Position numbers and translations under genes: made by a program. Positions 3,578-22,814 of a stretch of 64,000 nucleotides of DNA are shown in pieces. The notes under the pieces are model-generated. The model did no database searches and was not told the origin of the DNA. It was given only the letters and a program-made list of their open reading frames with translations. The DNA lies in contig CAXWPH010000012.1 in the NCBI GenBank assembly GCA_963666055.2, forward strand, positions 1 through 64,000, given 5' to 3'. The stretch comes from Acidobacteriota bacterium. GTDB lineage: Bacteria; Acidobacteriota; UBA890; WLXD01. Numbering within the stretch: the first letter of the stretch is position 1; every line of letters starts with the position of its first letter.

Positions 3578-3752
3578 CTAGCAGGCCGTGGTGAAAGTGT
3601 GGTGGGTCTGGCGACAGGGTCTTGCGAAGTGGAGGCAAGGAGAGAGGAGGAGGCGACGCTTACCCCATCGTTGACGAGGAACGACGCAGCATACGCGCGC
3701 AACCCCCTGCCGCCCGAAGGGTTACCACCACACTTTCACCACGGCCTGCTAG
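3578..3752. mobile_element. MITE copy 1 (internally deleted)
   Basis: 28-bp perfect terminal inverted repeat CTAGCAGGCCGTGGTGAAAGTGTGGTGG. Near-identical to the left part of 52498-52776. Confidence 0.9.
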
Positions 3753-5719
3753 GTCCTCTCCGCCCACGGATACTGGAATTCGGGTCGAATGACGTCGGTC
3801 AACAGCTCCTGGACGGCTCGATGTGCCTGGTCAAACGCCGCCTGCGTGAGCGAGATCGCCGCGGCATCTGAGTTCGCGATCGCGATGCGCCCGAACCTCT
3901 GGCGCCCAACGACCCACGGGGCCTCGTCGTAGCCCCAGTCCGGGTCGTAAAGATCGTTGGCTCCCCCGGCGTAGCCGTGCGGCCAGCGGCCGACGGTGAT
4001 GCCGGCGATATCGCGTGCCGGATCGAAACCGCCCTCGCCCAGGGCACGGCCGAGCTGGTCGCGGATGTTGCGCTCGAAGGTCTCGAACGGGGTCGCCAGC
4101 AGCTCCTCGCGCCCGGCGCGGAACTGGTCGCGGGCCGACAACCCCGGCCGGTTCGGGGCGCGTTGCAACCACAGCAAGATCGGCTCCTCCGGAGACGCCG
4201 AGTGGCGATAGTCCCCCAGGTTCACGCCCCAATCCAGATCGATGAACTCGCAGAACCCACCCGGGGTGTGGATGTCTTGAACTCCAAGATTCTGGAAGGC
4301 AGTCCAGTTGCGGATCGCGACCTGTGTGTAGACGTACGGCTTGCGCACGGCCATTCGCAGCGCCTCGGCCTGCTCGGTTGGCAGTTCCGGGCACAGGAAC
4401 GGAATTATGGCGTTGTAGCAGGCCATGACACACGTATCGGCGGCCACCGAAAGCGCCTTGCCGTCCTGCACGTACGTCACCGTTACGCCCGACGAACCGC
4501 GACGCTCACCCACGTGTCGCACACCGACAACGGTGGAGTTCAGGCGGATTCGCACCGGGCTCGTCGGAAGGTCGAGTTGCGAATAGCGCACCGGCGTGGT
4601 CACCGAGTCGTGCATCGTGCTCCCGGGCAGCGCCGACGGGATGAGCCAGCGCACCAAGAGGCGCGCCACCCCGGCGTTGCCGTCGGGAAAGTGGAGTCCG
4701 TGGAAGGGGTTGCTCTCCGTCCCGGCGTTTCGCGGGGGCCGCGGCAGGCCGAGTCCCTGGAAGCCGGGAAACGTATCCTCGCGAAACGCGCCCCAGGAGC
4801 TGTACGAATCGATGCCCGCCGCTCCGTTCGCGTCGCCCCGCTGCCGCAGGTAAGGGATCACATCCTCACTCACGCCCACTACGTTCAAGACGTAGTCCTG
4901 ATAGCTCATCTTCCGCAGACGATCGACCTTCTGCTCCACTGTGAGCTCCGGCAGGTAGTCGGTTTCATCGGCGAACAGCGTCAGGATGCCGCGCTTGGCG
5001 TCGTCCGAAAGCGGCGTCCTGGACAGGTACTCCGTCCACCGCTGGCGCCCTTTTTCGCCGATCACACCACTGGAGAAGGAGCCCCAGGGCTCGCCAACGA
5101 CGAGTCGATCTTCACCGAACACTTCGCGGGTGAAGAACACTGCCGACTGGAGGCCCAGTTCGTCATACAGGCTGCCGGAGCTGCCGCGTGGCAGGTTCGC
5201 AGCGTCGAGACCGATGTCCTCAAGCAGCGACACGCCTGCCGGGGGGTAGTGGCCGTCGATGAACTGGGTTCCGCCGTAGCCGATCAGCTGTCGGCCGTCG
5301 ACATCGAACTCCACGCGCTTCGCATGCCCGCCGAAGTCGTCGTGGTTGTCGAGGATCAGTACGGAGGCGTCGGGGAGCGCTTTGCGGAAGTAGTAGGCGG
5401 CGGCAAGGCCGCTCAGTCCGCCGCCGACGATGACCAGGTCGTAGTGCTCGCCCGAATCCGCCGCGTCGTCCCAAATCTTGCCGTCGCGCATCTCATGGGC
5501 GACCTCGAAGGAGCCGTCGTGGCTTCCCCGCATGCCGGTCAGCCGCGGCGGATAATAGTCACCTGAGCCTTACGGTAGTGTGTTCTGCTGAGACCTGTTG
5601 ACGGCATGTGCGGTCGATGAAGAGAACATCGCCCCGCCGATTGCTACGCTGGCACCGTCGAGGAAGTCCCGTCGTGTGATCTCACGATCCATCCCGAGCT
5701 CACGGTCCTTCCTCTTCAT
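3749..5719 (-). pseudogene. Spermidine dehydrogenase (SpdH)-like FAD oxidoreductase with Tat leader; in-frame TAA at 5570-5572
   Basis: MKRKDRELGMDREITRRDFLDG leader, then a stop, then YYPPRLTGMRGSH, VGGGLSG, DNHDDFGGHAKR, FPDGNA, RWPHGYA, IAIANSDA. The 594-aa downstream part is open. Confidence 0.85.
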
Positions 5720-6029: not shown

Positions 6030-7341
6030 GTGGATAAGCATCTCCGGCACGAAAGCCACCGACCGACTCGTCGGCTCCGAGCAGGGACGATCGTTGCCAT
6101 GCTTTGCCTGCTGGGTTCCCAAGCGGAGTCTTCCCCTGTCTCCAGCAGAGTTGCCTTGAGCGCGGTTGAACTCTTGACGGCGTTCTCGGGTGGGAGTGCC
6201 ACGCAGTACGAGCCGTTCTTCCGATTCTCGGAGGAGGCCAGAATCGTCGGGGTGGAGATTCACGCCGTCGGAACGGAGAGCACCACTGCCCGGTATTCCG
6301 GTAGGAACAAACCTTCGAAATCGGTCAACAACATCTTGCGGCTCACGACCGCGGACGGATTCGAGGGTATCTCCGGCGTGGCGTCCTATGGACGAGAGTT
6401 CAGCCGAGAGCATTTGCTGGAGCTGCAGGGCGTCGCCGCTGATCTCCTTGCCCTGCAGTCACTGGACCCGGTCGAGGTCGGGACGATGCTCGAGCGAACG
6501 AGACCCGGCTTGAGCGATGCAGCTCGCTCGAGCATCGATATCGCACTGTGGGACTTGGCGGCACGCAAGGGCAGATCGTCCTCTCTACCAGCTGCTGGGG
6601 GCAAAGCGGGACTCGATCGAGCCCTACGCCAGCCTGCCCTTCTACGATTCGCTTCCCGAGTACGTCAACGCGGTCAACGAGTACGCCAAGCTCGGCTATA
6701 GGACCTTCAAGTTCCACGTCTGGGGCCTGATCGAGGAGGACTCGCGACTCGTGGAGTTGGTCCAGCAGACATTTGCAGATTCTCCCTATCGCTTCATGAT
6801 CGATATGGAGGGAGCGTACGGCTTTGAGGACGCCCTCAGGCTGGGCGGGGAAATGGATGAACGACTGTTCGTCTGGTTCGAGGGCCCCATCAACGACGAG
6901 CTTCTGGAGGAATACGGGCAGCTCAGGAGCAGGCTCGCGGTACAGATCATTCCTGCCGGATACAACATCTATTCTCCCGAGTTCATCAGACAGGGGATCG
7001 AGGCCGGTTCATGGGATGCGGCCAGAGTCGATGCAACGGCGATCGGCGGGATCTCGAAAGTGCTCGAGATCCTGACGATCACCAACGATGCCGGCCTGGC
7101 GATCGAGATCCAGAGCTGGGGTCATTCGCTGGCCCAGGCAGCCAACCTCCACCTGATGCTGGCCAATGAGCGCACCCGTTACTTCGAGGCTCCGATGCCC
7201 AAGGAGGCCCACGAGTTCGGGATGAAGAACGGCAACTTACTCGATCAGGGGCGGGCCGTTGTGCCCGAGGCGCCCGGTCTGGGTATCGAGGTAGACTGGG
7301 ATCGCTTGGCCACGGCAGATTTCTACGCCTACTCGAAGTAG
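6030..7341 (+). CDS. Mandelate racemase/muconate lactonizing enzyme (enolase superfamily) protein with signal peptide; +1 frameshift at ~6570
   Basis: LRLTTADGFEG, SSIDIALWDLAARK|ADRPLYQLLG, GYRTFKFH, WFEGP, PGLGIEVDW. The two ORFs join by removing one G from GGG at 6569-6571. Confidence 0.85.
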
Positions 7342-7439: not shown

Positions 7440-8765
7440 ATGAGCAAGAAGGTGACCGGCAACAAGTCGACCCGACGTGACCTGGCGCGCAGCGCCGTTA
7501 TCGGTTACACCGCCGCCGCCCTCGGGTTGCCAAGGAACCTGCTTGCCAGGGCGATTCCAGATACGGGCCAGATGGGCGGCGGGGAATCGGGCCCCGCAGG
7601 GTGGCGCAAGAACACCATTGACGCGGAGTACTACACGGACGAAGAACGCTACCTGTTCGATGAGCGCTTAGTGGCCGATCATTTCTGGCAAATGGTCGAT
7701 CACGAGAGCAGGATTGCCGAACCGGGCGATTACTTCGTCTTCGAATACGGTCGCAGCGAGAGCGTCATCATCCTGCGCGATGAGGCCGGCGCGGTGCGCG
7801 CTTACTACAACGTCTGCCGCCATCGTGGCTCGAGGCTTTGTCGCCACGATGCCGACGCCGTCCCGGAGGATCCACGCCTTTCGGTTCGACAGTCCGGGCA
7901 GACGGGCAACACGCCGGTGTTCCGCTGCCCGTACCACGCCTGGACCTACGATCTGGACGGCAAGCTCGTCTATGCCTATGGCATGCAGGACGACTTCGAC
8001 CCGGCCGACAACGGCCTGATCCCCTGCCACGTCCGCACGGCAGACGGCTTCATCTTCGTGAACCTGTCGCGCGAGCCGGAGCCACCGGAGTTCGAGTCAG
8101 CGATCGAGCCCTTCCGCCGCAAAGTGGGTCAATCACACCGCACCGCAGACTTGAAGGTCGGCGAGCGCGTCTACGTTACGATGCGCGCCAACTGGAAGCT
8201 GGCGCTGGAGAACTTCCTGGAGTGCTATCACTGCGGGCCGTCGCACGACTACCTGTGCTACGTGTTCCCGAACATTGACCTCTCGATCCCGGAATCTCAA
8301 AGACCTGCGCGAGGGATGCCTGCGGGCTTCGTCAGCGCCACCCTCGACGGCAAGCCGGCGGCTCCGTTATTGCCCGCCTTCGAGCGCAGAACCGGCAGGA
8401 AGGTGGGAAGCGACGCGGCGACAGGTTGGTCGACCGGGTACTGGTCTCCCAACGAGGATTACGTCTTCGCGGTTCGATTCACCCCCCGTGATGTCGACCT
8501 CACCGACGTGGAATGCCTCTGGCTCGTACACCCGGATGCGAAGCGAGACGTGGACTACGACCCGGAGAGGCTGAAGGAGATATGGTTCGTCACGCTCCTC
8601 GAGGACATCTGGTTGTGCGAGAACAACCACACCGGCATCTGCTCCGGCGCCTACCGGCCCGGACGCTACGCCACCCATGAGATTGGCCGGATCTTGCCGG
8701 CTAATTTCATCCACTGGTACATGAACGCCGTCGAGGGCGACGTTGGGCGGGTGATGCCCTACTGA
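7440..8765 (+). CDS. Rieske non-heme iron oxygenase alpha subunit (choline/betaine/stachydrine-type), paralog 1, Tat-like leader
   Basis: NVCRHRG...CPYHAW Rieske ligands, NWKLALENFLECYHCGPSH and a C-terminal ED iron ligand. N-terminus STRRDLARS followed by a hydrophobic stretch. Confidence 0.92.
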   Translation: MSKKVTGNKSTRRDLARSAVIGYTAAALGLPRNLLARAIPDTGQMGGGESGPAGWRKNTIDAEYYTDEERYLFDERLVADHFWQMVDHESRIAEPGDYFVFEYGRSESVIILRDEAGAVRAYYNVCRHRGSRLCRHDADAVPEDPRLSVRQSGQTGNTPVFRCPYHAWTYDLDGKLVYAYGMQDDFDPADNGLIPCHVRTADGFIFVNLSREPEPPEFESAIEPFRRKVGQSHRTADLKVGERVYVTMRANWKLALENFLECYHCGPSHDYLCYVFPNIDLSIPESQRPARGMPAGFVSATLDGKPAAPLLPAFERRTGRKVGSDAATGWSTGYWSPNEDYVFAVRFTPRDVDLTDVECLWLVHPDAKRDVDYDPERLKEIWFVTLLEDIWLCENNHTGICSGAYRPGRYATHEIGRILPANFIHWYMNAVEGDVGRVMPY

Positions 8766-8839
8766 CGAGCTTGGTGTCCGAGAAGTTCACGGAGCGCGCT
8801 GAACCGGAGACGTCGGTGCCCGGTACGAGGAAGCAGACA

Positions 8840-10914
8840 ATGCGCCGAACAACGCTCGCTAGCTCCTTTGTCGCGATCATGCTGTTGGCCGGGCCTTCGC
8901 ACGCCGGCGAACAGCTCTCCCCGACCGAAAGCCAGATCCTGAGCGCTCTGGATAGCGACAGGACCATCGCCCTCACCCGCCGTCCTCTCGGAGGAGCTCG
9001 TCAAGAACGACTCGGGTGCCGGTGCCGGCTCGGCCATCGCCGGCAGCGCCGATGAGCGCCTCTTGGCCGGCTTCATCGAGGCGGAGATGAAGCAGATGGG
9101 CCTGGAGGTGCGGCGGGAGAGCTTCCCGGTGCACGCCTACGACTACGGGAAAGTAGTGTTGCGGGCAGCGGGCAAAGAGCTGCCGGCGATCACGCAGCAC
9201 TCCGGCTCCGGGACCTGGGGGCGCGGTCGAGCGAGTGCCGTACACCAAGGGCAACACTTCTGGTGGACGGCGCTTGCGGACGGCCTTGCTCGATGCCGGA
9301 GAAGGCTGGGTGCATGACTACGCCAACCTGAGCGAGGTGCGCGGCAAAGCCGTGCTGGTGCGGCGCGGAGACGATTGGCTTAACAGCCAGGTGGTGATGG
9401 AGGCGGCAGAGCAGGGAGCGTCCGCGATCTTGCTCTACGACTACGACAGCGGTGCCGAGGCCCCCCAGGACTCGATCCAGCAGATGAGCATCGTCTACCG
9501 CGACCCGATCCCGACCGTGACGATCAGCAACCGCGATGCCGCATGGCTCAAGGAACGTCTTGCCGAGGGCGAGGTGATGATCGAGCTGGAGAACCGCGTC
9601 GACGTCGGCTACGGCTTCTCGGAGAACGTCATCGGCATGATCCGGGGCACGGAGTATCCGGACGAGTGGATCGTGGTCTCAGCGCACCACGACCGCTGGT
9701 TCCAAGGCGCCCAGGATGACAGCGTTGGTGTGGCCGTCATGCTGGAGCTGGCCCGCGTGATCTCGGAGGGTTACCGACCGCGGCGCAGCTTCCTGTTCAT
9801 TGCCTTCGGAAGCGAAGAGGTCGGAGGGCTATGGACCCAGTTCGACTGGCTGGCGGGCTCCTATGCGTTCATCCGGGCGCACCCCGAGGTCACTTCGCGA
9901 CTAGCCTACGCCTTCAACGTGGACTTGGCCGGTTGGACGGGGCGTGAGGGCCAGGTGCGTGCCACCCTCGACCAGGTCGCCTTCCAACGCGGTTTGCTGG
10001 CAGACCTCGGTCTCGACGAGCGTGTGACCGTGCGCGAGCATGTCGGCACGGGCGTCGACGCCTGGTCGTTGGGAGGCGTTCGGGGCGGCGCGGTGGCCTA
10101 CCTGAGTTGGACCGGCGACGTCCCCTTCAGCCGCTACTACCATACGCAGCACGATCTCTATCGCGCCGAGGACTACGCCAACCTGCAGCACGACCTGCGA
10201 CACGGAGCACTCGGCGTGCTCCGGATGGATCAAGCCGTCGTCCTGCCCGTCGGTTTCTCGGAGATCGTCGACTGGGTCACCGAACAGCTCGACAGGATCG
10301 AGCAGACGGTCTCCTCGCTCTCGACACCGACGGAGCTGCTTTTCGAAGCCAGACAGTCGGCAGAGCGCCTTCGTACGCAGGCCGAAAGGCTCGCAGCGGC
10401 CTCAGCGTCCGTGGTGGATCGCGACGATATAGCGGTCGTGAATGCTCTCTTGATGAAGACCCGACACGATCTCGTTCCCTGGCTTCTCAACACAGAAGAA
10501 CGCTTGAGAGGGAGCCGCTACGCGGAGGATTTCACTGCACTCCAGAGAGCTCGCCTCGCTGCCACGGATGGAGATACGGAGGCTGCGGCTGCTGCGCTCG
10601 AAGAGGTCAACACGATGCAGTGGGGCAAGCGGGTTTCGCCCGAGACCTACCGCGCTGAGAGGCTGCTGTCTTACGAACCGACCGGTTGGATGTGGGAGTT
10701 CGACCAGCACCCACGTCCGGTCGATCCGGAGCTCCACACCATCTACTCGCAGCTGCGGGCGGGACGCGGCGTCGATTCGGTCTCCGGGATCGCCCGGCTC
10801 GAGGCGCAGGCGGAGGGTTCGCTGCGGAAGGCCTTGTTCATCGTGGCCGGCAAACTGCGGGAAGCCGCGCGGGCCCTTGCTGATGCTCCGCTGCCGAACG
10901 TAGGATCCTTCTGA
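8840..10914 (+). CDS. Secreted M28 metallopeptidase with PA domain; two +1 frameshifts (~8980, ~9219)
   Basis: Signal peptide MRRTTLASSFVAIMLLAGPSHA, NVIGMIRG, SAHHD, GAQDDSVG, FGSEE, NVD, YHTQHD. The N-terminus is split over three frames. Confidence 0.85.
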
Positions 10915-10943
10915 ACTTCAAACCTGCGGATCGAGGAGAGACG

Positions 10944-12446
10944 ATGAGCCAAGAGAAAGGCAAGGGCCAGAAAGACGGCATGAGCCGGCGCGACTTCGCC
11001 AAGTCCTCGATTGCTGCGGGTACCGCTGCGGTCACGCTTCCGAAAGGGCTGCGCGCCGAGGCCACGCCGGGCAGCAGCGTCACAGCAAGCGAAACGACCT
11101 ACGGGCGAACCCATCGCCCGCCTCCGCCGCCGGAGACGCGCGGCTATGGTGGGCTTGGAGCCGGAGAGGCGCCCGCCGCGCGCGCACCAGAGAAGACCCG
11201 CCCGAGCTATCCGAATGGCTGGAAGGAAGGCTCGACCATTCCGGCCGAGTACTACGTCGACGAGAGGCATTACGTCGCAGATGAGCGTTTCCTCGCCGAC
11301 AACATCTGGCTCTACGTCGATCACGAGAGCCGCATTCCCGAGCCGGGAGATTACTTCGTGTTCGAGATGGGGCGCTCGGAGAGCGTCATCATCGTACGCG
11401 GCACGGATAGCCAGATCCGGGCCTTCCACAATGTTTGCCGTCACCGTGGCTCGCGGCTCTGTCGACACGATGGCGATTCGATCCCGGGCGATCCGCGGCT
11501 GTCCGTCAAGCAGCTGGGGCAGACCGGCAACTCGCCCGTGTTCCGTTGCCCATACCACGCCTGGACGTACGACACCGAGGGCAGTCTGATCTATGCCTAC
11601 GGCATGCAAGAGGACTTCGACGCGGCCGACAACGGCTTGATCCCGTGCCATCTGCGAACGGCGGAGGGCAGCATCTTCGTCAACCTGTCGCAGCAGGCCG
11701 AGCCACCGGACTTCGAGTCCTCCGTCGCAAGACTGCGGATCATCGGCCAGTACTACGGACACGCGGGTCTGAAGATCGCCTCCCGCGACAGCTACGTGAT
11801 CAACGCCAACTGGAAGCTGGTGTTGGAGAACTTCGCAGAGTGCTACCACTGTGGGCCAACCCACAAGGGACTAACCACGACCCACCACTACGACCACGAG
11901 CTCACGCCGGAGCAGATGGCGGCGCGCAGCGCGGCGGTAGCAGAATGGCTGACACCGGCGGGCAGGATACGACCTGAGGGCACCGAGCAGGGGCCGAGGT
12001 TGGTGGGGAACCTGAACGCCGGGTTTGTCACCGGTTCCCCCGACGGCAAGTCGGTGGCCCCGTTACTTCCCAACATCAAGCAGCCGACACACGGCACCAA
12101 CGAAGCGCAGACTGGACACTACACCGGCTACTGGCAATCCTACGACGACTATGTCGTCGCGATCCGCTTCACGCCTCGAGATGTCGCGCGCACCGACTGT
12201 GAGGTCGTCTGGCTGGTGCACCCGGACGCGGTGGAGGGAAGAGACTACGATCTGGACAAGCTCAAGGCGTTCTGGCAGGTCATCGTCCAGGAAGATGGCT
12301 GGGTCATCGACAACAACCACAGGGGCATTCTCTCGGGCGCCTATCGCTCGGGTCGGTACTCTACCCATGAGAACTCGACGGCCGATTTCATCAAGTGGTA
12401 CATGGGCGAGGTGGTGACGACGGGAGAGCCTACGGACCTGGCGTAG
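10944..12446 (+). CDS. Rieske oxygenase alpha subunit paralog 2 with Tat signal
   Basis: MSRRDFAKSSIAAGTAAVTLPKGLRA leader, CRH...CPYH, NWKLVLENFAECYHCGPTH, QED. Confidence 0.92.
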   Translation: MSQEKGKGQKDGMSRRDFAKSSIAAGTAAVTLPKGLRAEATPGSSVTASETTYGRTHRPPPPPETRGYGGLGAGEAPAARAPEKTRPSYPNGWKEGSTIPAEYYVDERHYVADERFLADNIWLYVDHESRIPEPGDYFVFEMGRSESVIIVRGTDSQIRAFHNVCRHRGSRLCRHDGDSIPGDPRLSVKQLGQTGNSPVFRCPYHAWTYDTEGSLIYAYGMQEDFDAADNGLIPCHLRTAEGSIFVNLSQQAEPPDFESSVARLRIIGQYYGHAGLKIASRDSYVINANWKLVLENFAECYHCGPTHKGLTTTHHYDHELTPEQMAARSAAVAEWLTPAGRIRPEGTEQGPRLVGNLNAGFVTGSPDGKSVAPLLPNIKQPTHGTNEAQTGHYTGYWQSYDDYVVAIRFTPRDVARTDCEVVWLVHPDAVEGRDYDLDKLKAFWQVIVQEDGWVIDNNHRGILSGAYRSGRYSTHENSTADFIKWYMGEVVTTGEPTDLA

Positions 12447-12469
12447 GTTGCCCAGGGAGCGGCGGATCG

Positions 12470-14266
12470 ATGATGAAAACCGGGCCCCGGCTGCTAATCG
12501 CTCTGCTGGCGAGTCTGAGCGCATTGGCTTGCCGGCCGTCAACCGACGACTCCTCGCCAGGCGATGCTGGCGGTCCTGCCGATTCGGTCCTGCGCGGCGG
12601 TAGGTTCTTTACCCTCGACGAAGCCCAGGTCTGGGCGGAAGCTGTCGCGATCAGGGACGGCCGGTTCGTCTACGTGGGCGACGACGCGGGCGCACAGAGA
12701 TTCGTTGGTCCCGATACCGATCGCCATGACCTCGGCGGCAGGCTGACCCTTCCCGGTCTGGTGGATTCCCATACCCACCCGGGTCTGATGGGGCGGGTGT
12801 CGGCCGGGTATATCGCGGTCCCTGTAGGTGGTGGTCCGAGAGGGAGCCTGCCGAGGGGCGGGAGCAATGAGGAGGTGGTCGCCGCGGTGCAGGCGTATGC
12901 TCAGGCCAACCCGGATCTTCCCTGGATCGAGATGGGTAGCTGGTCCGGGCACGTGTACGGCAAGGCGGGCCCACACAGGCGAGATCTGGATCGCGTCGTA
13001 CCGGATCGACCTGTGATGCTGGGAGACGGCACCGGCCATAGCGTCTGGGTCAACTCCGTGGCACTCGAGATGATGGGGGTCGACAGCGACACACCCGATC
13101 CGGTACCCGGTCTTTCAACCTTCGTACGGGATGCCGATGGGGAGCCCACCGGCTGGATCAAGGAATTCGCCGCCTGGCCCTATGCGCGGCCCATTGCTGC
13201 TGCCATTGATCGGGAGTCCAACAAGGAGGGCATCGTCACCTTCTTGGAGTACCTGTCACGTCTCGGCGTTACTACGCTCTTGGACGCCGGTAACTTCGAC
13301 TACCACGATCTCACCTACTCGTTGCTTGCCGAGCTGGAGGGCGCCGGTCGTCTGCCGGTTCGCTACGAGGCCAGCTATCACATCTTCTTGCCCGATCAGG
13401 TGCCCGGTGCGATCGACGAGCTGGAGCGGCTGCGGCGCACCTACGGCGGCGAACGTCTGACGTTCAACACCATCAAGATCCATTTCGACGGCACGGATGA
13501 GCTTCGTAGCGGCGCGGTGCTCGAGCCGTTCAGCGATGACCCGGGCAACCGGGGCACTACGCTCCTCGACACCGAGGAACTGGGCGAGTTCATCGTGCAG
13601 CTTCACGCAGCCAGGATCGATCTGCACCTGCACATCATGGCCGACCGGGGCGTACGCATCGCGCTCGATGCCGTGCAAGCAGCGCGGGAGTCGGTCGACG
13701 GCGAGCTCTATCCGCGCGTCACCATCTGCCACCTGGATATCATCGATGCGGCTGACTACCCCCGTTTCAAACAGCTGGGTGTCATTGCCAACTACACGCC
13801 CCAGTGGCACGGCCTGGGAGACCGGCTGCCGTTGACCGCGCTTACCCTTGGCGATCGCTTCGAGAGGATGCTGCTGGTGCAGCCGTTACTGGATGACGGC
13901 GCCGTCGTGACCTTCTCCAGCGACGTGACATCGCTCCGTGGCATGGAGCGGGCCAACCCGTATCTCGGGATGCAGATCGGCCACAATCGCCAATACCATG
14001 AACAAGGTGCGGATGCGCCAATAAGGCTGCCGATGACCGAACGGCTGGACCTCGAGGACCTGATCAAGGGGTTTACCTTAAGCGGCGCCTATCAGCTCCG
14101 CATGGAGAACCAGCTCGGCTCGATCGAGGTGGGCAAGCTCGCCGACCTGGTGGTGCTCGACCGGAACCTTTTCGAAGTGGACCGCTACGAGATCCACACG
14201 GTGCGACCCGAAGCGGTCTTCATGGAGGGCGAGATCATCAGCGGAAGCTCGGACGCGTGGAGATGA
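12470..14266 (+). CDS. Amidohydrolase-3 (YtcJ/NfdA-like) lipoprotein, paralog 1
   Basis: Lipobox LSALAC, PGLVDSHTH, IKIHFDG, HLHIMAD, ICHLD, FSSD, GSIEVGKLADLVVLD. Confidence 0.9.
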   Translation: MMKTGPRLLIALLASLSALACRPSTDDSSPGDAGGPADSVLRGGRFFTLDEAQVWAEAVAIRDGRFVYVGDDAGAQRFVGPDTDRHDLGGRLTLPGLVDSHTHPGLMGRVSAGYIAVPVGGGPRGSLPRGGSNEEVVAAVQAYAQANPDLPWIEMGSWSGHVYGKAGPHRRDLDRVVPDRPVMLGDGTGHSVWVNSVALEMMGVDSDTPDPVPGLSTFVRDADGEPTGWIKEFAAWPYARPIAAAIDRESNKEGIVTFLEYLSRLGVTTLLDAGNFDYHDLTYSLLAELEGAGRLPVRYEASYHIFLPDQVPGAIDELERLRRTYGGERLTFNTIKIHFDGTDELRSGAVLEPFSDDPGNRGTTLLDTEELGEFIVQLHAARIDLHLHIMADRGVRIALDAVQAARESVDGELYPRVTICHLDIIDAADYPRFKQLGVIANYTPQWHGLGDRLPLTALTLGDRFERMLLVQPLLDDGAVVTFSSDVTSLRGMERANPYLGMQIGHNRQYHEQGADAPIRLPMTERLDLEDLIKGFTLSGAYQLRMENQLGSIEVGKLADLVVLDRNLFEVDRYEIHTVRPEAVFMEGEIISGSSDAWR

Positions 14267-14304
14267 GTAGCGTGACTCGACACCGGCCATCCGGGGAATC
14301 CCGG

Positions 14305-16437
14305 ATGAACCCACACGGTCTGGGCATTGCGGCCAGCGCTGCGGTCGTCGTGGCGATAGTGCTCGGTTTCGTCTTCCACGAAACACTGATGGGAGGCACT
14401 CTGCGCCGCCAGGCGACGGTGGCCGAGGGCATCGGCAGCGTCGACGGCGCCCGGATCGCTCGGGCCGCCGGTGAACCGGGGAACTGGTTCACCGGCGGCC
14501 GTACCTTTTCCGAGCAACGCTTCTCGCCGTTGGTCCAGATCCACCACGACAACGTCGGCGCGCTCGGCTTCGCCTGGGAATACGATCTGCGGACCAAGGG
14601 GCCGCTCGAGGCCTCGCCGGTCGTCATTGACGGCGTCCTGTACGCCAGCGGCACCTGGGGCCGCGTTTACGCCATGGACGCGGCGACGGGTGAGGAACTC
14701 TGGACCTACGATCCGCAGGTGCCCGGCAGCTGGGCTCGCAAAGCGTGTTGTGGCGTGGTCAACCGCGGCTTGGCGGCCTGGAAGGGCTCCATATACGTCG
14801 CTTCCCTCGACGGTCGGCTCGTCCGACTGGACGCCCGCACGGGCGAGCCGCTTTGGGAGCAGGATACGCTGATTGATCGTGACCGTGACTACACCATCAC
14901 CAGCGCCCCTCGCGTCGTGCGGGATCGCGTCGTCATCGGCAACAGCGGCGCCGAGTACGGGGTGCGCGGCTACGTCACCGCTTACGACGTCGAGTCGGGC
15001 GAGCTGGCGTGGCGCTTCTATACCGTACCGGGCGATCCCGACCTGCCCTTCGAGCATCCCGAGATGGAGATGGCGGCGGCCACTTGGGACCCCGACTCGC
15101 TGTGGGAGTTCGGTGGCGGCGGCACCGTATGGGGCGACATGGCCTACGACCCCGAGCTGAACTTGCTGTACGTGGGGACGGGGAACGCCTCGCCTTACCC
15201 CGTGGCGACCAGGAGCCCAGCAGGCGGGGACAACCTGTTTCTGGCATCGATTCTGGCCATCAACCCGGACACGGGTCGGCTCGTGTGGCACTACCAGACG
15301 ACGCCCGGAGAGAACTGGGACTACACGGCGACGCAGAATCTGATCCTGGCCGAGATGGAGATCGATGGTCGCCAGCGAAGGGTCATCATGCAGGCGCCGA
15401 AGAACGGCTTCTTCTATGTAGTCGACCGGCAGACCGGCGAGCTGTTGTCGGCAGAACCGTACGTCAAGGTGAACTGGGCCAGCCACGTGGATCTCACTAC
15501 CGGTCGTCCGGTACAGGTGCCGGCTGGCGACTACGCCGATGAACCGAAGACGGTCAGCCCGTCCTGGTGGGGTGGGCACAACTGGCATCCGATGGCGTTC
15601 AGCCCGATGACCGGGCTCGTCTACATTCCGACGATCGAGTGGCCGACCACCTTCGAGCGTGTGCGCGACCCCGTATACCGTCCGGGCCAGCAAACCACGG
15701 GGGTGAGGACCCAGGGTGGGTCGTTTCCCTACGACGCGCCCGCGGAGGATGAGCCCCACGCCCTCAAGGCCTGGGACCCGGTGGCAAACCGCGAGGTCTG
15801 GCGCGTGAGCTACCGCTTCCCCTACAACGGCGGCCTGCTGACCACAGCCGGCAACCTGGTCTTCCAGGGGACGGTTGACGGTCGCCTGAAGGCCTATGCC
15901 GCGGACACCGGCGCAGAGCTGATGAACATCGAGGTGGGCACCAGCATCATGGCGGCGCCAGTCGCGTATCTCGTAGATAACACCCAGTACATCGCCGTGA
16001 TGGCCGGCTACGGCGGCGGGTCGAACAACCGGGCGTTTCCAGAGGGCTCGGCAGCGATCGAGCGTGGCAACGCGGGACGCATCATCGCGTTCACGCTGGA
16101 CGGAGGGCGCGTGCCGCTTCCGCCGGTCGTCGATCCGCGCCCCGAGATCCCGCTACCGCCCCGACCGGACGCCTCCCCGGAAAAACTCGCTGAGGGACGG
16201 CGAACTTACAGCCGGTTTTGCGCCGATTGCCATCGCATCGATGACCAGCCGACAATAGCACCCAACCTGTTGCGCATGGACGGTGCCGCTCACGACGGGT
16301 TCGAGAGAATCGTTCTCGAGGGGCTCCTCGAAGCCAACGGCATGCCCGACTTCGGCGGCGAGCTTACCGACGACGAGGTCGAGGCGATTCACGCGTTTCT
16401 TGTCGAGACCGCCCACGAGGTGCGGGGCATCGACTGA
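14305..16437 (+). CDS. PQQ-dependent quinohemoprotein dehydrogenase (type II ADH-like) with C-terminal cytochrome c
   Basis: ACCGVVNRG vicinal disulfide motif, GNSGAEYGVRG, GGGTVW, WDYTATQ, APKNGFFY, GGHNWHPM, and C-terminal CADCH...GMP. Confidence 0.93.
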   Translation: MNPHGLGIAASAAVVVAIVLGFVFHETLMGGTLRRQATVAEGIGSVDGARIARAAGEPGNWFTGGRTFSEQRFSPLVQIHHDNVGALGFAWEYDLRTKGPLEASPVVIDGVLYASGTWGRVYAMDAATGEELWTYDPQVPGSWARKACCGVVNRGLAAWKGSIYVASLDGRLVRLDARTGEPLWEQDTLIDRDRDYTITSAPRVVRDRVVIGNSGAEYGVRGYVTAYDVESGELAWRFYTVPGDPDLPFEHPEMEMAAATWDPDSLWEFGGGGTVWGDMAYDPELNLLYVGTGNASPYPVATRSPAGGDNLFLASILAINPDTGRLVWHYQTTPGENWDYTATQNLILAEMEIDGRQRRVIMQAPKNGFFYVVDRQTGELLSAEPYVKVNWASHVDLTTGRPVQVPAGDYADEPKTVSPSWWGGHNWHPMAFSPMTGLVYIPTIEWPTTFERVRDPVYRPGQQTTGVRTQGGSFPYDAPAEDEPHALKAWDPVANREVWRVSYRFPYNGGLLTTAGNLVFQGTVDGRLKAYAADTGAELMNIEVGTSIMAAPVAYLVDNTQYIAVMAGYGGGSNNRAFPEGSAAIERGNAGRIIAFTLDGGRVPLPPVVDPRPEIPLPPRPDASPEKLAEGRRTYSRFCADCHRIDDQPTIAPNLLRMDGAAHDGFERIVLEGLLEANGMPDFGGELTDDEVEAIHAFLVETAHEVRGID

Positions 16438-16496
16438 GACTCCAAGTGTTGTCGGGGAGTGGGTAATGGCGGAAGCCCCCTGTGATCGCTGCGGCG

Positions 16497-18410
16497 CTAG
16501 GTCGCTACGCTGAGCCCCTCGACCGCCAGATGCGCCGCGCCGATGGCGCCTTCGGTCATCGCATTGGCCATCGCATCCGAGTTGGCGATCGCGATGCGGC
16601 CGAAAGGCTGGCGGGCGATGAGCCACGAAGAACGCTCGGGCGGCACTTCATTGAGCCTCCATGCGATCTGACCGGTCTCCAGATCGTGACCGTAGGCATA
16701 GCCGTGCGGCCAGCGGTTCACAGTGATCGCCTCGATATCGCGCGCCGGGTCGAAGCCCCCGGCAGAGAGTATGCGGCCGAGCTGGTCCCTGATCTCGCGC
16801 TCGAAGGTCTCGAACGTCGTCATCACCAGAGCCTGGCGGGCCGCCTTCCACTGCTCCGCCGCGGACCGCCCACGGGCCTCGGGCACCAGGGGGGCGCGCC
16901 ACATGCGCACCACGGTGGGCTCGTCGGGCGTGCTCGCGTGTCGGTAGCCCCCAATGCTGATCGGCGGCGTCAGATTGACGTCGTCGAAATAACTGCCCGG
17001 GCAGCGCACATCGTGCGTGCCGAGCTTCTGGAAGGCGGTCCAGTTGCGGATCAGCACGTTGGTATACACAAGGGGCGCCTTGAGAGCCTGCGATAGAGCC
17101 CGCGTCTGGAGGTCAGGAAGCTCGTCGCAAATGTGAGGAATGACCGCGTTGTAGCAGGCAAGCACACAGCGGCCGGCGCGAACTCGCTGGGCCCGACCGT
17201 GGCGGACGTAGGTGACCTCGACTTCTTCGGCGGTCTGCGGATCACCACGGTGGCCCACCCGCACCGCCGTGCTCTCCAGACGCACGCGGACGGGCGAGTC
17301 TTCCCGATCGAGCTTGCCGTAATCGAATCTGGCCGCGACGACATCCTCCATCGTGGTGCCGGGAGCGACGTCGGGGATCAACGACCGGACGAGCAGGCGC
17401 GCGATCGACGCGTTGCCATCCGGGAACTGGAAGAAGGCGCGCTCCTCGGTGGGTTCGGCGCCGTCATCGTTGTTACCGAATCCGAGCCCGGTGGTTCCTG
17501 GCCGGCTGCCAACGCCGCTCCAGGCGGAGATCGCATCGAAGCCGATCGCCCAGCCGTTGGACGTCTGAAGGAAGGAGATTGCCTCCGGGCTGATCTTGAC
17601 CGCCTGCAAGAGAAAGTCTTCGTAGCTGGTGCGCTGTAGATACTCGACTTTCTCTCCCGAGCTGAGGTGCGCCAGATAATCGACGTTCGACTCGTGGAGT
17701 CGCACGATGTCCTCACGGGCCCTTTCGGACAATGGCGTACGCGCCAGGAAGTCGCGCCAAGAGGGCTCGCCTTCGCCCACCAGCAGACGATCGGTGCCGA
17801 ACGTTTCGCGGTCGAAGAAGACCGACCCGCGCAGGCCGAGCGAGCTGTACAGATCCTCATCGACGAACTCGGCGTAGCGGCTCACGTCGATGCCGATCCC
17901 GTGGATCAGGCGCTGGGCTGCCGCACTGTACCGGTGCAAGTTGGAGATGAAGATGGTGCCGCCATGGGACAGCTCCATCTGACCTTCGTGCCAGAACTCG
18001 TTGCGCTTGGCATGACCACCGAAGTCGTCATGGTTGTCGAGGATCAGGATGCGCGCCCCGGGAACAGCCTCTCGGAAAAACCATGCCGACGCGAGGCCGC
18101 TGATGCCGCCCCCGACCACAATCAGGTCGTAGAGTTCACCCGTCTCCTCCGGATTGTCCCAGCGCATACCATCTCGTAGCTGGTGAGCAACCTCGTAGGA
18201 GCCTTCGTGGCTGCCGCGCATACCGGTCCGGATCGGAGGATACGCAGCCATGGACTGTCGGCTTCGCCCCGGAGTCCCAGGGCTCGCCAGGGCGTGAGTC
18301 TGCGCCCACGGCAACGCGAGGCTGCCGCTCAGCGCTACGCTTACACCGGAGACGAAATCGCGACGGGTGATCTCCCGGCACATTCCCAGATCAAGATCCC
18401 TATCTGTCAT
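16497..18410 (-). CDS. Spermidine dehydrogenase (SpdH)-like flavoprotein paralog 2, intact Tat signal
   Basis: ITRRDFVSG leader, YPPIRTGMRGSH, VGGGISG, DNHDDFGGHAKRNEF, FPDGNASIARLLV, NRWPHGYAY. Confidence 0.9.
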   Translation of the reverse strand: MTDRDLDLGMCREITRRDFVSGVSVALSGSLALPWAQTHALASPGTPGRSRQSMAAYPPIRTGMRGSHEGSYEVAHQLRDGMRWDNPEETGELYDLIVVGGGISGLASAWFFREAVPGARILILDNHDDFGGHAKRNEFWHEGQMELSHGGTIFISNLHRYSAAAQRLIHGIGIDVSRYAEFVDEDLYSSLGLRGSVFFDRETFGTDRLLVGEGEPSWRDFLARTPLSERAREDIVRLHESNVDYLAHLSSGEKVEYLQRTSYEDFLLQAVKISPEAISFLQTSNGWAIGFDAISAWSGVGSRPGTTGLGFGNNDDGAEPTEERAFFQFPDGNASIARLLVRSLIPDVAPGTTMEDVVAARFDYGKLDREDSPVRVRLESTAVRVGHRGDPQTAEEVEVTYVRHGRAQRVRAGRCVLACYNAVIPHICDELPDLQTRALSQALKAPLVYTNVLIRNWTAFQKLGTHDVRCPGSYFDDVNLTPPISIGGYRHASTPDEPTVVRMWRAPLVPEARGRSAAEQWKAARQALVMTTFETFEREIRDQLGRILSAGGFDPARDIEAITVNRWPHGYAYGHDLETGQIAWRLNEVPPERSSWLIARQPFGRIAIANSDAMANAMTEGAIGAAHLAVEGLSVAT

Positions 18411-18478
18411 GCGCACCTCGGCTCGGCGCTGTTCGTCGATCGCCCCACAGTCGCTCCCTGACGCAGCAACTCGGAGAT

Positions 18479-19867
18479 TCAGGTCAGCAGCGTACCCTCT
18501 GGACCCTCGAGGCGGGCAGTCGGACTCTCATGGCGCCGTGGGTTCCACGCTGGCCCGATGTCACCCGCCACGGCGTTCATATACCACTCCATGAATCTGG
18601 ACGGGCTGGGCTCATGGGTGGCGTAGCGGCCAGGCCCGTAGGCGCCGGAGCAAATGCCGGCGTGGTTGTTCTCGCACAACCAGATGTCTTCGAGGAGCGT
18701 GACGAGCCACACCTCCTTCAGCCTCTCTGGATCGTAATCCACGCCGCGCTTCGCATCCGGATGCACGAGCCAGGTGCACTCCACGTCGGTGAGATCGACA
18801 TCACGGGGGGTGAATCGAACCGCGAAGACGTGATCGTCGTATCCGAGCCAGTAGCCTGTAGACCAACCCGTCGTCGTTTCGGTCGACGTGCGCGATGTCG
18901 TCCTCGCGTCGGTGCCCTCGAAGGCGGGTAGCAACGGTGCCGCCAGCTTACCGTCCATCGTGCCGCTGACGAATCCGTTGAGCAGCCCACCCTTCCCTTG
19001 CTTCTCGGACTCCGTCGTGAAGTCAGAGCCCGGGTACACGTAGCAAAGGTAGTCGTGCGACGGCCCGCAGTGGTAGCACTCCAGGAAGTTCTCGAGCGCC
19101 AGCTTCCAGTTGGCGTGCATCGGAACGTAGACGCGTTCGCCGACCTTCAATTGTGCGGTCCCGTGGGGTCCGCCCACATCGCGGCGGAAGGGCTCGACCG
19201 CTGACTCGAACTCCGGCGGTACGGGCTCGCGCGACAGGTTGACGAAGATGAAGCCATCCGCCGTGCGGAGGTGGCAGGGCATGAGACCGTTGTCGGCCGG
19301 GTCGAAGTCTTCCTGCATGCCATAGGCATAGATCAGGCTGCCTTCGGTGTCGTACGTCCAGGCGTGGTACGGGCAGCGGAACACCGGCGAGCTGCCCGAC
19401 TGGCTGAGCTGCTTGACCGACAGGCGCGGATCCTCAGGGATCGGATCCGCATCGTGACGACACAGGCGCGAGCCGCGGTGGCGACACACGTTGTAGAAGC
19501 CGCGGATTTCGTTGTCCTGGCCCCGCACGATCAGGATGCTCTCGCTGCGACCGTACTCGAAGACGAAGTAGTCGCCCGGGTCGGCAATCCTACTTTCGTG
19601 ATCGACCATGAGCCAGAAATGATCGGCCACCAAGCGCTCATCGAACAGGTAGCGCTCTTCGTCCGTGTAGTACTCCGCGTCAATGGTGTTTTTTCGCAAC
19701 CCTGCGGCGTCCGATTCCCCTTCCCCGCCGGCCATCTGGCCCGGGTCTGGAATATCCCTGGCAAGCAGGTTCCTCGGCAACCCGAGGGCGGCGGCGGTGT
19801 ACCCGATAACGGCGCTGCGCGCCAAGTCACGCCGGGTCGACTTCTTGCCGTCCTCTTTCTTGCTCAT
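18479..19867 (-). CDS. Rieske oxygenase alpha subunit paralog 3, Tat-like leader
   Basis: MSKKEDGKKSTRRDLARS, with the same Rieske and mononuclear Fe motifs. An inverted near-duplicate of paralog 1, including ~95 bp upstream. Confidence 0.92.
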   Translation of the reverse strand: MSKKEDGKKSTRRDLARSAVIGYTAAALGLPRNLLARDIPDPGQMAGGEGESDAAGLRKNTIDAEYYTDEERYLFDERLVADHFWLMVDHESRIADPGDYFVFEYGRSESILIVRGQDNEIRGFYNVCRHRGSRLCRHDADPIPEDPRLSVKQLSQSGSSPVFRCPYHAWTYDTEGSLIYAYGMQEDFDPADNGLMPCHLRTADGFIFVNLSREPVPPEFESAVEPFRRDVGGPHGTAQLKVGERVYVPMHANWKLALENFLECYHCGPSHDYLCYVYPGSDFTTESEKQGKGGLLNGFVSGTMDGKLAAPLLPAFEGTDARTTSRTSTETTTGWSTGYWLGYDDHVFAVRFTPRDVDLTDVECTWLVHPDAKRGVDYDPERLKEVWLVTLLEDIWLCENNHAGICSGAYGPGRYATHEPSPSRFMEWYMNAVAGDIGPAWNPRRHESPTARLEGPEGTLLT

Positions 19868-20087: not shown

Positions 20088-22512
20088 TCAGCGTTGTGTC
20101 CCGTCTCGGAGCTGCAATCCAAGACGCGCGTGCTGGTTGGAGAGCTCGTTTCTGCCGAGTCGATTGTAGATATCCGCCAGCAAGAGATGACCCAGCACCT
20201 GGTCCTGCCTGGTCACTTCTTGCGGCACTCCGCGCGCAGTCGACGACTCGAGTCGCTCCAGCGCCCCCTCGACGAGCGACACGGCCTCGTCGAGGCGCTC
20301 GTTCTTCAGCAGGTAGATGCGGGCGAGGAAAAGGCGCCCACCGGCGAACTGCGGGTTGATCTCGAGGGCCAGACGCAGGTAGCGCTCCTCCTCGACGAGG
20401 TCACCGCGGTTGCGGTAGATGACGCTGAGGTTGAAGGCGGCCCTGCCGTTGCGCGGCGAGATCTCGAGCTCGCGGCGGTAGGCGGCGATCGCCTCGTCCG
20501 GCTGTTGCCGGGTCTGGAACAGCAAGGCACGTTGGAAGTGCAGATCGGCGATGCTCTCGTTGAAGCCGCGCGCCAGGTTCAGGTGTTCCTCCGCCATGCT
20601 CAGGCGGTTGCTGGCCAGCTGCACGGCCCCGAGCCCGACGTGCGCGGCGGCCATGATGTTGTTCGCCGGAGCATCCTCGTTGAGGCGCAACGCCTCGTTG
20701 AAATAGGTCGCCGCCTCGGTGTAGGAGCGCCTCGCCTGCTTGATGCGCCCGAGGCTGATGTACAGCCGGGCATCCTGGACCGCCCGGCGCCCCCCCGGCT
20801 CCAGGACGCCGATGAAGTCCAGCAACACCTTCTCGGCCTCGTCCAACCGACCGGACTTCCTCTGCGTGCTGGTAAGAAAGAGCACCAGGGCCGCGTCCTC
20901 GGGCCGCAGAGAGAGGGCGGTCTCGAAGGCTTCGATCGCTTCGTCGTAGCGGAGCTGCTCGACGAGCAGGTTGCCGAGCGACTGGTGTGCATCGACTACT
21001 CCGGCATCCGCGGCGATGACCCCCCGCAGGAGCAGCTCGGCCTCGGCCATCTCGTCATTGACGGTCAGACGGCGGGCCCGCAGCAGGTCGTTGTAGATCT
21101 CGATCTTGTCCCTCGGGTTGGCGCGCTCGACGTCCGGGTCGTCCGCATCGGCGCTGGCGTTGCCGATGTACCCGAGTGCGGCGAGCCGCTGGAGAGTCTC
21201 CTGGTCGAGCGTGACGGTGTCCGCCGGGTTGGCGTTCTCCTCGAGCTGCGCCACCAGCTCCTCGGCCTCCCGGCGCAGCGCCTCCGCCGTGGCGGCGCGC
21301 TCTGATGCGAGGTTCTGCTGCTCCTCGGGGTCCTGAAGAAGATCGTAGAGCTCCGGCTCGGGCGAGATGATGAGCTTGTGGGTGGGCTCGAGGATCGCCT
21401 GGAGCTCGCTCCAGCCGAAATGCAGGCGCGGGTAGAAGGTCTCGGCATAGACGCGCTCGTCGGTCCTGCCCTCGACCTCGGCGTCGTTGGTAAACAGCGG
21501 TACCAGGCTCCTGCCATGCACCTGCCCGGGGGTCTCCAGCCCGGTCAACTCCAGCACGGTCGGCATGACGTCGATCAACGAGACCAGTTCGTGGCGCCGG
21601 ATGCCCTGCGGCTCGTCGAACGGGGTGGCGATGATCAGCGGCACCCGGATGGCCGACTCGTATAGCAGCAGCCCGTGCTCGTTCTCCCCGTGCTCGCCCG
21701 AGGCTCTCGCCGTGATCGGCTGCCACCACCACGTAGGTGTCGTCGGAGCGGCCGGAGTCGTCCAACCACGAGGTCAGCCGGCCCACCAAGGAGTCGGTCC
21801 AGGCGATCTCACCAACGTAGGGGTTGGCGTATCGTGACCTGAAAGGTTCGGGTGGCTCGTATGGGGTATGCGGGTCGTACAGGTGAACCCACATGAAGAA
21901 CGGGGTCGTGTCGTCCTCGCCGGCCCACGCCAGGGCGGTATCGACGACCTCTGATCCGGGGCGCTGCACGCGGCTCAGAAAGATCGCTCGCTGCTTGGGC
22001 ATCTCGAACTCGTCGAAGTACCGGTCGAACCCCTGGGCCAGGCCCCAGCGCGAGTCGAGGACGAAGGCTCCGACGAAGGCGCCGGTGCGGTAGCCGGCCT
22101 CCTGGAAGCTCTCGGCCAGGGTCTGCAGCCCTTCCGGCGCGACGTGTACGCCGTTGTCGCGCACCCCGTGGTAGGGCGGGTGGGTGCCAGTGAACAGCGA
22201 CGTGTGCGAGGGCAGCGTCAGCGGCGTCGAGGCGTAGGCGCGCATGAAGGTAACGCCGCGGGCGGCAAGCCCATCGATAACAGGTGTGTCGATCTCGTCG
22301 AAGCCGTATACGCCGAGTCGATCGGCGCGCGTCGTGTCGAGCGTCACCAGCAGGACGTTGAGCTTGCGGTCGCCGCGGAGCTGGTCGAGATTGGCCCCCG
22401 GGGACGCTCCCGGGCCACAGCTGATCGTCAGCAGGATGATCGCGGACACGGACGCGAGAACGGCGAGCGCACCAGGTCGCGGCACACGCCGACCGCGCTC
22501 GAAGCTCGGCAT
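20088..22512 (-). CDS. Sulfatase-like hydrolase fused to TPR repeats; +1 frameshift at ~21698
   Basis: NVLLVTLDTTRADRLG, PLTLPSHTSLFTG, WVHLYDPH, ADHGESLG|EHGENEHG, LAALGYI, then TPR helices. Start approximate. Confidence 0.88.
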
Positions 22513-22814
22513 CCTACTCGCCTCATCGCCAGGGGTCGTGGGGATCGACCGCGCGGTGCGGGCCGCCATCCGTGGTCGGGACGCGGCGCGGCCGGTGCGG
22601 ATCCTCCCAGATATTAGCCCGGATTTCCCAGATGGATCTTTGATCCCGGTCACAGCTCATGATGGGCGGTAGCCATCGTTTGCGCAGCGAATCTCTTGAG
22701 GAGCCCAACGATCGGTGGTTGTATCCAGGCGTCCCGATACTGACCAAGCCAAGAGCCTGACTCGACCAGGGGCATCTCGGAAATCCCGGGAGGTAGACAG
22801 TGGCTGGAGGATCG

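Follow-up and report, generated by a model that had tools for sequence, protein, structure and literature searches.

From where would a Rieske oxygenase draw its electrons if it worked outside the cytoplasm? The question is raised by the first 64,000 nucleotides of contig CAXWPH010000012.1 of an Acidobacteriota bacterium (assembly GCA_963666055.2), called the window below, in which three genes for Rieske oxygenase alpha subunits each begin with a twin-arginine (RR) leader. All three encode intact Group V enzymes of the Stc2/GbcA kind. Judging from its sequences, the clade to which they belong is very probably exported by the twin-arginine translocation (Tat) pathway, and we lean slightly toward its members being periplasmic amine or N-methyl oxygenases that are fed from a dehydrogenase through a heme to the Rieske centre. 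The catalytic core is of a known kind, and it is the periplasmic location and the electron supply that would be new. To our knowledge, characterised bacterial Rieske oxygenases are all tied to cytoplasmic NAD(P)H, and the titles and abstract openings of the open-licence literature yielded no described example of an exported one.

Three oxygenases, one leader and one insert

The first gene (7440..8765, plus strand) encodes 441 residues with the leader STRRDLARS (RR codons at 7473-7478), the second (10944..12446, plus strand) 500 residues with SRRDFAKS (10986-10991), and the third (18479..19867, minus strand, with its start at 19867) 462 residues with STRRDLARS again (19834-19829). The proteins are called 7440, 10944 and 19867 below. 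An earlier note on this DNA had described three Rieske alpha genes with RR N-termini (STRRDLARS, MSRRDFAKS and STRRDLARS) that retain the cluster ligands and the mononuclear iron site, and the open reading frames (ORFs) bear out both statements. All are intact, match PF00355 and PF00848 in a Pfam scan of 49 window ORFs, and keep the C-x-H/CPYH Rieske ligands, the E-C-Y-H-C-x3-H motif and the distal Asp. In 10944, the cluster is held by C165, H167, C202 and H205 and the iron by H302, H307 and D451, with E299 as the bridging residue and C300/C303 as a cysteine pair. Across 81 aligned rows these ligands are invariant (C165 being C141 in the first row), and E299, C300 and C303 are present in 81/81; the combination of bridging Glu and CxxC pair is a Group V feature in the part of the source seen (PMC10952381). 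Cluster box II reads CPYHAWTY, as in cytoplasmic oxygenases, and the invariant W444 occupies the position of Stc2 W353. An AlphaFold2 model of 10944 (predicted local distance difference test, pLDDT, 78; predicted template modelling score 0.78) has 3n0q, Stc2 and CntA as its top Foldseek matches. In many clade members the catalytic domain also has a loop rich in Gly and Met (GMG; alignment columns 400-450), and the 7440/19867 type is without it.

Between the His and the Cys of the two cluster-binding boxes lies a clade-specific insert of 17-27 residues (pLDDT ~55-60), which is present in 7440 and covers 11463..11519 on the plus strand in 10944 (residues ~174-192). When aligned with CntA, it falls in the segment that matches CntA/YeaW His91-Cys109, which holds K104. 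Charge reversal at K104 leaves YeaW with 6% of its activity, and the residue has been proposed to be part of the reductase docking face (PMC9508527, in the portion consulted). As the insert occupies the segment with this docking residue, the docking face of the clade would be remodelled.

The leader and the insert mark one clade. In a quick maximum-likelihood tree of the catalytic core, all 32 insert-bearing rows form a single clade (Shimodaira-Hasegawa approximate likelihood ratio support 100, stem 1.04) apart from 40 outgroup rows, none of which has the leader (0/40). The strict RR pattern is met by 30/32 clade rows; P0123 has TRRDL, and P0007 nests beside 10944. The genome (5.73 Mb, 95.7% complete) holds 16 full-length clade copies, with the RR leader in 16/16, besides three leaderless oxygenases similar to GbcA and choline monooxygenase, one of which is frameshifted. 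The RR motif also lies within the first 60 residues of 112/120 top homologs, so the conservation of the leader, on which the earlier note had let its reading depend, is seen in the genome and among its relatives. Five of the eight motif-less homologs begin inside the leader and are, by inspection, late start calls; a cluster member of P0055 has the full leader, P0060 begins inside the core, and P0007 is discussed further on. Within the class, 5/26 genomes have the clade, all of them in one genus and with 6-23 copies each. It occurs in 8/401 sampled genomes of the phylum (12 matches minus 4 leaderless) and also in further Acidobacteriota, one Woeseia genome and one relative, while 1/201 genomes matched in the order of G412 and 2/101 in the family of G414. 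These distribution counts are lower bounds, as generic patterns were used and the scans covered 4/64 parts of the metagenomes and 5/64 parts of GTDB. Matches with E values of 1e-101 to 1e-106 in genus g77 were considered as clade members and rejected, being leaderless outgroup proteins.

The consensus leader, S-R-R-D-F-A-K-T-S-V-A-A-G-A-A-A-V-A-L-P-x-x-L-R-A-E, follows an n-region that varies and precedes a linker that is likewise variable, is modelled with low confidence and extends to about residue 85 in 10944. R15 and R16 are invariant across 38 and 81 aligned rows, with flanks that vary freely, and the S-R-R-D-F-A-K consensus of the 112 homologs gives an N-terminal motif similar to S/T-R-R-x-F-L-K. 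By patterns of our own, an uncharged run of at least 13 residues is found in 107/112 homologs and an AxA-like signal-peptidase site in 98/112; a basic c-region is found in 77/112. In the window leaders, 13-14 uncharged Ala/Gly-rich residues come after the RR motif. Our Tat-like pattern is met by 91/4694 called genes (1.9%), and since the RR leader is found in 16/16 clade copies against this background, RR leaders exceed chance. The 10944 leader shows zero differences in independent contigs (three runs, two studies). Tat machinery is encoded in the genome (two TatC loci and TatA), the neighbours of the window oxygenases carry export signals, and it is established Tat logic that a cofactor such as [2Fe-2S] must be loaded before export.

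Neighbouring genes and the search for a donor

The earlier note had stated that no reductase, ferredoxin or beta subunit occurs in the 64 kb, and had taken a missing nearby reductase as a sign of export. The first part is right: genome-wide searches and the Pfam scan of the window ORFs give 0 matches in the window to ferredoxin-NADP reductase domains (FNR), Reductase_C, plant-type or Rieske ferredoxin, or a beta subunit, and PF00866 (beta subunit) has 0 matches in the whole 95.7%-complete genome. FNR lies within 3 kb of 0/52 non-redundant clade copies, so a cognate reductase is not consistently adjacent in relatives. Genome-wide, there is no cognate FNR-[2Fe-2S] reductase, only a stand-alone Fpr and a PyrK-like protein. 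The second part did not hold, for the absence is not diagnostic. An FNR lies within 3 kb of 1/84 leaderless rows (by a hidden Markov model, HMM, of four FNR domains, and with many short flanks) and of 0/27 leaderless loci, where neither FNR nor Reductase_C is among the Pfam families shown for 106 neighbours of at least 150 residues (out of 142 listed); the genome's own leaderless oxygenases have no adjacent reductase either. Since leaderless relatives mostly go without one too, a missing reductase is a weak test for this two-component type. Reductase or ferredoxin fusions are confined to the outgroup (4/150 representatives: P0167, P0211, P0243 and P0181); a search for donor fusions among proteins of 876-2500 residues was negative at E 1e-30, though as evidence this is weak. 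Donor fusions in G060 and G250 were rejected, as the long open frames are GC-rich read-through and tandem genes. The sole Fpr-like FNR of the genome, missed by the PF00970 search, lies with a plant-type ferredoxin at C15:1223772-1228978, by eye near a putative selenium-binding protein/methanethiol oxidase gene.

What does stand beside the oxygenases is a set of exported heme proteins. A gene for an SpdH-like FAD/heme-b dehydrogenase (16497..18416, minus strand) starts 62 bases past the 19867 gene on the same strand; its product has an RR leader, the FAD fold and both heme-b ligands (His54/His562 in the numbering of PMC12564564), matches PDB 7d9f with an E value of 2e-143, and is a candidate electron source. 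A quinohemoprotein dehydrogenase (14305..16437, plus strand; TIGR03075 623.8 bits, PF13442), with an N-terminal hydrophobic segment, a pyrroloquinoline quinone (PQQ) propeller and a C-terminal CxxCH cytochrome c domain, may be a second. Across the genome, an SpdH-like gene lies within 500 bp of 7/16 oxygenase copies and within 5 kb of 11/16, the means under random placement being 0.4 and 1.0 and the 5 kb maximum 6 in 2000 placements. The five class genomes with 6-23 oxygenases have 24-32 SpdH-like copies, as against 0-2 in the other 21, which are oxygenase-free. The co-occurrence of the oxygenases with SpdH-like genes that the earlier note had proposed is thus seen both as adjacency and as co-expansion. 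Two heme-His motifs are present in 27 and 30 of the genome's 31 long SpdH-like frames, and the RR leader in 27. By tblastn, the genome has ~31-32 SpdH-like paralogs, 20 PQQ-family loci and 28 amidohydrolase_3 loci; its exported catabolic repertoire is very large, and the SpdH-like expansion is specific to the genus.

Partners were counted around the 52 non-redundant copies, which are 56 clade rows minus four duplicates (L159 three times, equal to G413 contig 103, and L161, equal to G415 contig 56). Partial matches below 90 bits were excluded, and distances are those between HMM-matched segments. For the 26 copies inside the genus, SpdH-like genes are found within 3 kb of 13, PQQ enzymes of 7, either of 18 and a small cytochrome c of 0; for the 26 outside it, the figures are 10 for cytochrome c, 5 for SpdH-like, 3 for PQQ and 16 for any. 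None of these partners is found near the 84 leaderless rows. Leaderless relatives lie among enzymes of the cytoplasm, for instance DAO/GcvT dehydrogenases and aminotransferases of class III. Outside the genus, no neighbour of the oxygenase is more specific than the small cytochrome c. It has ~150-170 residues, mostly with a lipobox, and is of the His/Met type, its CxxCH being invariant and its Met nearly so. It is the next gene in nine loci of two phyla, with a GTGA stop/start overlap between oxygenase and cytochrome c in G060, G335 and L160, the same strand in G250, G414, G629 and L164, and convergent orientation in L163 and L042. In four sister genomes (G017-G020), it comes after an SpdH-like gene. 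In G250, one strand carries SpdH-like gene, oxygenase, oxygenase and cytochrome c in this order. Co-folding of the G250 oxygenase dimer with this cytochrome c scored 0.45 against 0.00 for the best control (runs sharing at least 90% of contacts; pLDDT of the partner 88 or higher). In the calibration, which applies only roughly here, scores up to 0.60 came from 18/157 solved complexes and from both of the passing mismatches among 215, so the predicted complex has weak support.

Gene order varies among relatives. In G019 and G020, one strand bears an M28 peptidase gene, a 10944-type, a 7440-type and a 19867-type oxygenase (types assigned by N-terminal likeness), and an SpdH-like gene; the window probably shows this unit after rearrangement, with the 19867-18416 pair kept. 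At L268:7387-11545 and L269:11569-15729, three different oxygenase paralogs, one with an RRDF and two with RRDL leaders, stand in tandem before an SpdH-like gene, an arrangement that suggests a hetero-trimer. A recurring exported pair without a named family, made of a ~290-residue 'FEGW...N.DG' protein and a ~450-residue CxxCH protein, is often near PQQ enzymes and clade oxygenases (L032:6461-8697, L041:1327-3618, L042:5826-7868, where the two are fused, L159:2267-5667 and, in this genome, C12:462931-465149 and C6:423353-425668). The locus C6:34351-39859 of this genome encodes a Rieske/cytochrome b complex and, directly behind it, a protein of large size, and may link quinol to periplasmic cytochromes.

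The rest of the window neighbourhood also encodes exported or signal-bearing enzymes. A mandelate racemase/MLE-family enzyme with a signal-like N-terminus (6030..7341, plus strand) lies upstream of the 7440 gene, an M28/PA peptidase with a Sec-type signal (8840..10914, plus strand) between the 7440 and 10944 genes, and an Amidohydrolase_3 protein with a lipoprotein-type signal (12470..14266, plus strand) directly downstream of the 10944 gene. A second SpdH-like gene (3749..5719, minus strand) has an RR leader that scores 20.6 bits with TIGR01409, above the cut-off, and directly behind the leader an in-frame TAA (5572-5570) that is repeated in contigs of three runs and two studies; it may be a pseudogene or have a leaderless restart. 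A partial copy, 99% identical, lies at C12:420795-422604. Frameshifts at 6569, 8983-8984 and 9217 were considered as marks of pseudogenes and rejected, the extra bases being assembly errors according to independent contigs. Further single-base frameshifts are found in 21055-22653 (sulfatase-TPR) and 22800-24615 (a second amidohydrolase).

A proposed electron path, weighed against its rivals

In the mechanism that we favour, the oxygenase, loaded with its [2Fe-2S] cluster, would leave the cytoplasm folded through Tat, and its leader would be cleaved near LRA/E. The SpdH-like FAD/heme-b enzyme, or the PQQ enzyme, would oxidise its own amine or alcohol substrate. Electrons would then pass from the surface heme of the SpdH-like enzyme to the Rieske centre, either directly or via the small class I cytochrome c, at the docking face remodelled by the insert. 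For SpdH itself, the part of the report consulted describes electron flow from FAD to a surface heme b, with cytochrome c accepted as electron acceptor (PMC12564564); we infer the transfer from dehydrogenase to Rieske centre from gene order, co-expansion and the weak co-fold. The electron would go on over the bridging Glu to the neighbouring subunit's iron, where O2 would be activated and an N-methyl or amine-adjacent C-H hydroxylated, as in established Group V chemistry. The expanded paralogs may differ in substrate specificity and together serve to scavenge a range of compounds beyond the inner membrane. N-methylated or other amines are the likely substrate class, judging from the kinship with Group V, the conservation of Trp/Tyr positions, neighbours of the amine type and the DAO/GcvT dehydrogenases beside leaderless sisters; this is the weakest step. 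A heme-copper oxidase is encoded in the genome.

Several observations tell against this picture, the first of them against export itself. The curated Tat HMMs, TIGR01409 and PF10518, have cut-offs that 0/3 window leaders reach; that of TIGR01409 is reached by 1/9 clade leaders and not by the leader of the intact window SpdH-like protein. The 7440 and 19867 leaders match neither and have no consensus Phe, and that of 10944 stays below threshold with 10.2 (cut-off 16.7) and 18.8 (cut-off 22.7), respectively. The FA/LA pair is atypical, as most Tat leaders carry a large hydrophobic residue at the position of this Ala: the clade has Ala for the Leu of the Tat consensus, and 7440 and 19867 have Leu for its Phe. 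P0007, an ortholog 80% identical to 10944 and seen on 12 contigs, has lost its leader entirely; at its syntenic locus (L256:2299-3546, G415 contig 56) leader and linker are deleted, and the protein may stay in the cytoplasm, be in decay, or leave the cell interior piggy-back as part of a mixed trimer. Elsewhere in the genome there are an Fpr-like FNR (C15:1228163), a plant-type ferredoxin and three Rieske ferredoxins. The oxygenases could then be cytoplasmic enzymes whose RR-like N-terminus does not export them and which receive electrons from the Fpr-like FNR and from stand-alone ferredoxins, a reading that also draws on the leaderless relatives, which are likewise without adjacent reductases. 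We consider it quite unlikely. An invariant RR and a conserved h-region over Acidobacteriota and Gammaproteobacteria are hard to explain without export, a single Fpr would have to serve 16 copies, and reductase fusions stay within the outgroup; moreover, the window neighbours have export signals, whereas leaderless relatives sit among cytoplasmic enzymes. Weak TIGR01409 or TIGR02811 matches are found for 7/9 clade leaders tested versus 0/2 leaderless controls.

The other counterpoints concern the electron supply. Clade neighbours supplied the sequences for the partner HMMs, and the outgroup came from other taxa, which makes the contrast partly circular. A single segment, 99.9% identical between its occurrences and bearing both an oxygenase and an SpdH-like gene, accounts for three of the 16 genome copies (C2:332000-339000, C2:403526-407445 and C6:299983-306733) and may be a recent duplication or an assembly artefact; the co-expansion counts as one event in evolution. 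The oxygenases also have Amidohydrolase_3 genes around them (1, 4 and 9 of the 16 copies within 500 bp, 5 kb and 10 kb), so part of the neighbour signal is that of an island of exported enzymes. This genome has no small cytochrome c within 6 kb of any copy, its four homologs being at least 17 kb from any oxygenase or on other contigs. The family is found in 14 class genomes without the oxygenase clade, also beside PQQ dehydrogenases, so it may be a general acceptor. Finally, the electron step from dehydrogenase or cytochrome to Rieske centre looks uphill on general potentials, which lie near -0.1 V for oxygenase Rieske centres and exceed +0.1 V for His/Met cytochromes. The onset reported for SpdH in the part of the source consulted, -0.14 V vs Ag/AgCl (PMC12564564), is ~+0.06 V vs the standard hydrogen electrode by our conversion; the parts examined of PMC7908018 give no potentials for oxygenase Rieske centres. 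This apparent uphill step keeps in play the cytoplasmic location, a reversed electron flow, and supply by peroxide or quinol.

With reversed flow, the exported Rieske protein would be a dehydrogenase or O2-independent amine oxidiser, which would take electrons from its substrate by way of the iron, then the Rieske centre, and hand them to the small cytochrome c, a shared acceptor for the Rieske protein, the SpdH-like and the PQQ enzymes. Gene order and the weak co-fold fit it equally well, the cytochrome is of the His/Met type and adjoins dehydrogenases too, and Rieske to cytochrome c is the usual periplasmic direction, as in bc1 and AioAB. On the other hand, the oxygenase site, bridging Glu and CxxC pair are all invariant, box II is oxygenase-like without the Ser of the bc1 type, and we know of no dehydrogenase-type chemistry for the Rieske oxygenase fold. 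This direction of flow is thus unlikely, and it is equally doubtful that we face a possibly hetero-trimeric, Tat-exported Rieske/iron enzyme that would pass electrons from amines to a dedicated cytochrome c and on to respiration, without NAD(P)H and perhaps without O2 activation.

The proteins may instead be periplasmic without being fed by their neighbours, either as H2O2-driven peroxygenases or reduced from the quinol pool via some membrane protein. This would avoid the uphill step, and for 18/52 copies, several of them on short contigs, all three partners are missing from the 3 kb around the gene; CntA has a peroxide shunt that runs without NADH or reductase, according to the part of PMC10952381 seen. 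A peroxygenase would make the Rieske ligands and the conserved new loop dispensable, yet they are invariant. Neither an oxidase nor a membrane cytochrome is a recurrent neighbour of clade genes, and the translational overlap with cytochrome c in three loci also speaks against such a supply, to which we give little weight.

The dehydrogenase-fed periplasmic oxygenase keeps our slight preference. The reading of the earlier note stands in part, being supported by leader conservation, TatC/TatA and SpdH-like neighbours and not by the argument from the absent reductase. If the proposal is true, a redox chain in the periplasm can power C-H oxidation of the Rieske kind, comparable to what fungal lytic polysaccharide monooxygenases achieve outside the cell, and the 24-32 SpdH-like paralogs per genome in the genus would have a role. 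Such oxygenases might need no cofactor recycling if an electrode-compatible heme enzyme can drive them. With the four-gene unit of G250, the question becomes directly testable.

Comparison with known systems

By sequence and fold, the best matches of the clade are Stc2 (PDB 3VCA/4QUP), the uncharacterised 3N0Q and GbcA (NF058607), with E values of ~1e-56 to 1e-55 and, for Stc2 and 3N0Q, Foldseek TM scores of 0.80-0.81 by target length against the clade model. Metal ligands, Glu bridge, CxxC pair and the lack of a beta subunit are common to the clade and to Stc2/GbcA. Identity is ~30%, and the window copies score 219, 238.7 and 219.5 bits with NF058607, the GbcA equivalog model, without reaching its cut-off of 670. 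Only the clade has the RR leader with a linker of 55-110 residues and the 17-27-residue insert in the Rieske domain, and it has heme-protein neighbours where GbcA/CntA-type systems have a GbcB/CntB-type reductase. CntA/YeaW, which work with CntB/YeaX, resemble the clade in being of the Group V alpha3 type with a bridging Glu, and a peroxide shunt is possible for CntA in the portion of its source seen; they differ in being cytoplasmic and NADH-fed, and their K104-bearing His91-Cys109 segment is expanded in the clade.

Exported Rieske proteins of another kind are well known. PetA/QcrA and AioB are [2Fe-2S] proteins that leave by Tat with an RR leader and exchange electrons with c-type cytochromes. 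Unlike the clade, they are small electron-transfer subunits without a mononuclear-iron domain, and they donate to cytochrome c. On the dehydrogenase side, the intact window neighbour shares with SpdH (PDB 7D9F) the RR leader and both heme-b His ligands as well as the strong sequence match, and differs in belonging to a family of ~30 paralogs per genome. The nearest working analogy for the whole is the supply of electrons by cellobiose dehydrogenase to lytic polysaccharide monooxygenase: the two have unrelated folds, use copper instead of a Rieske/iron pair, and are fungal and extracellular, but there, too, an exported flavo-heme-b enzyme feeds an exported metallo-oxygenase without NAD(P)H.

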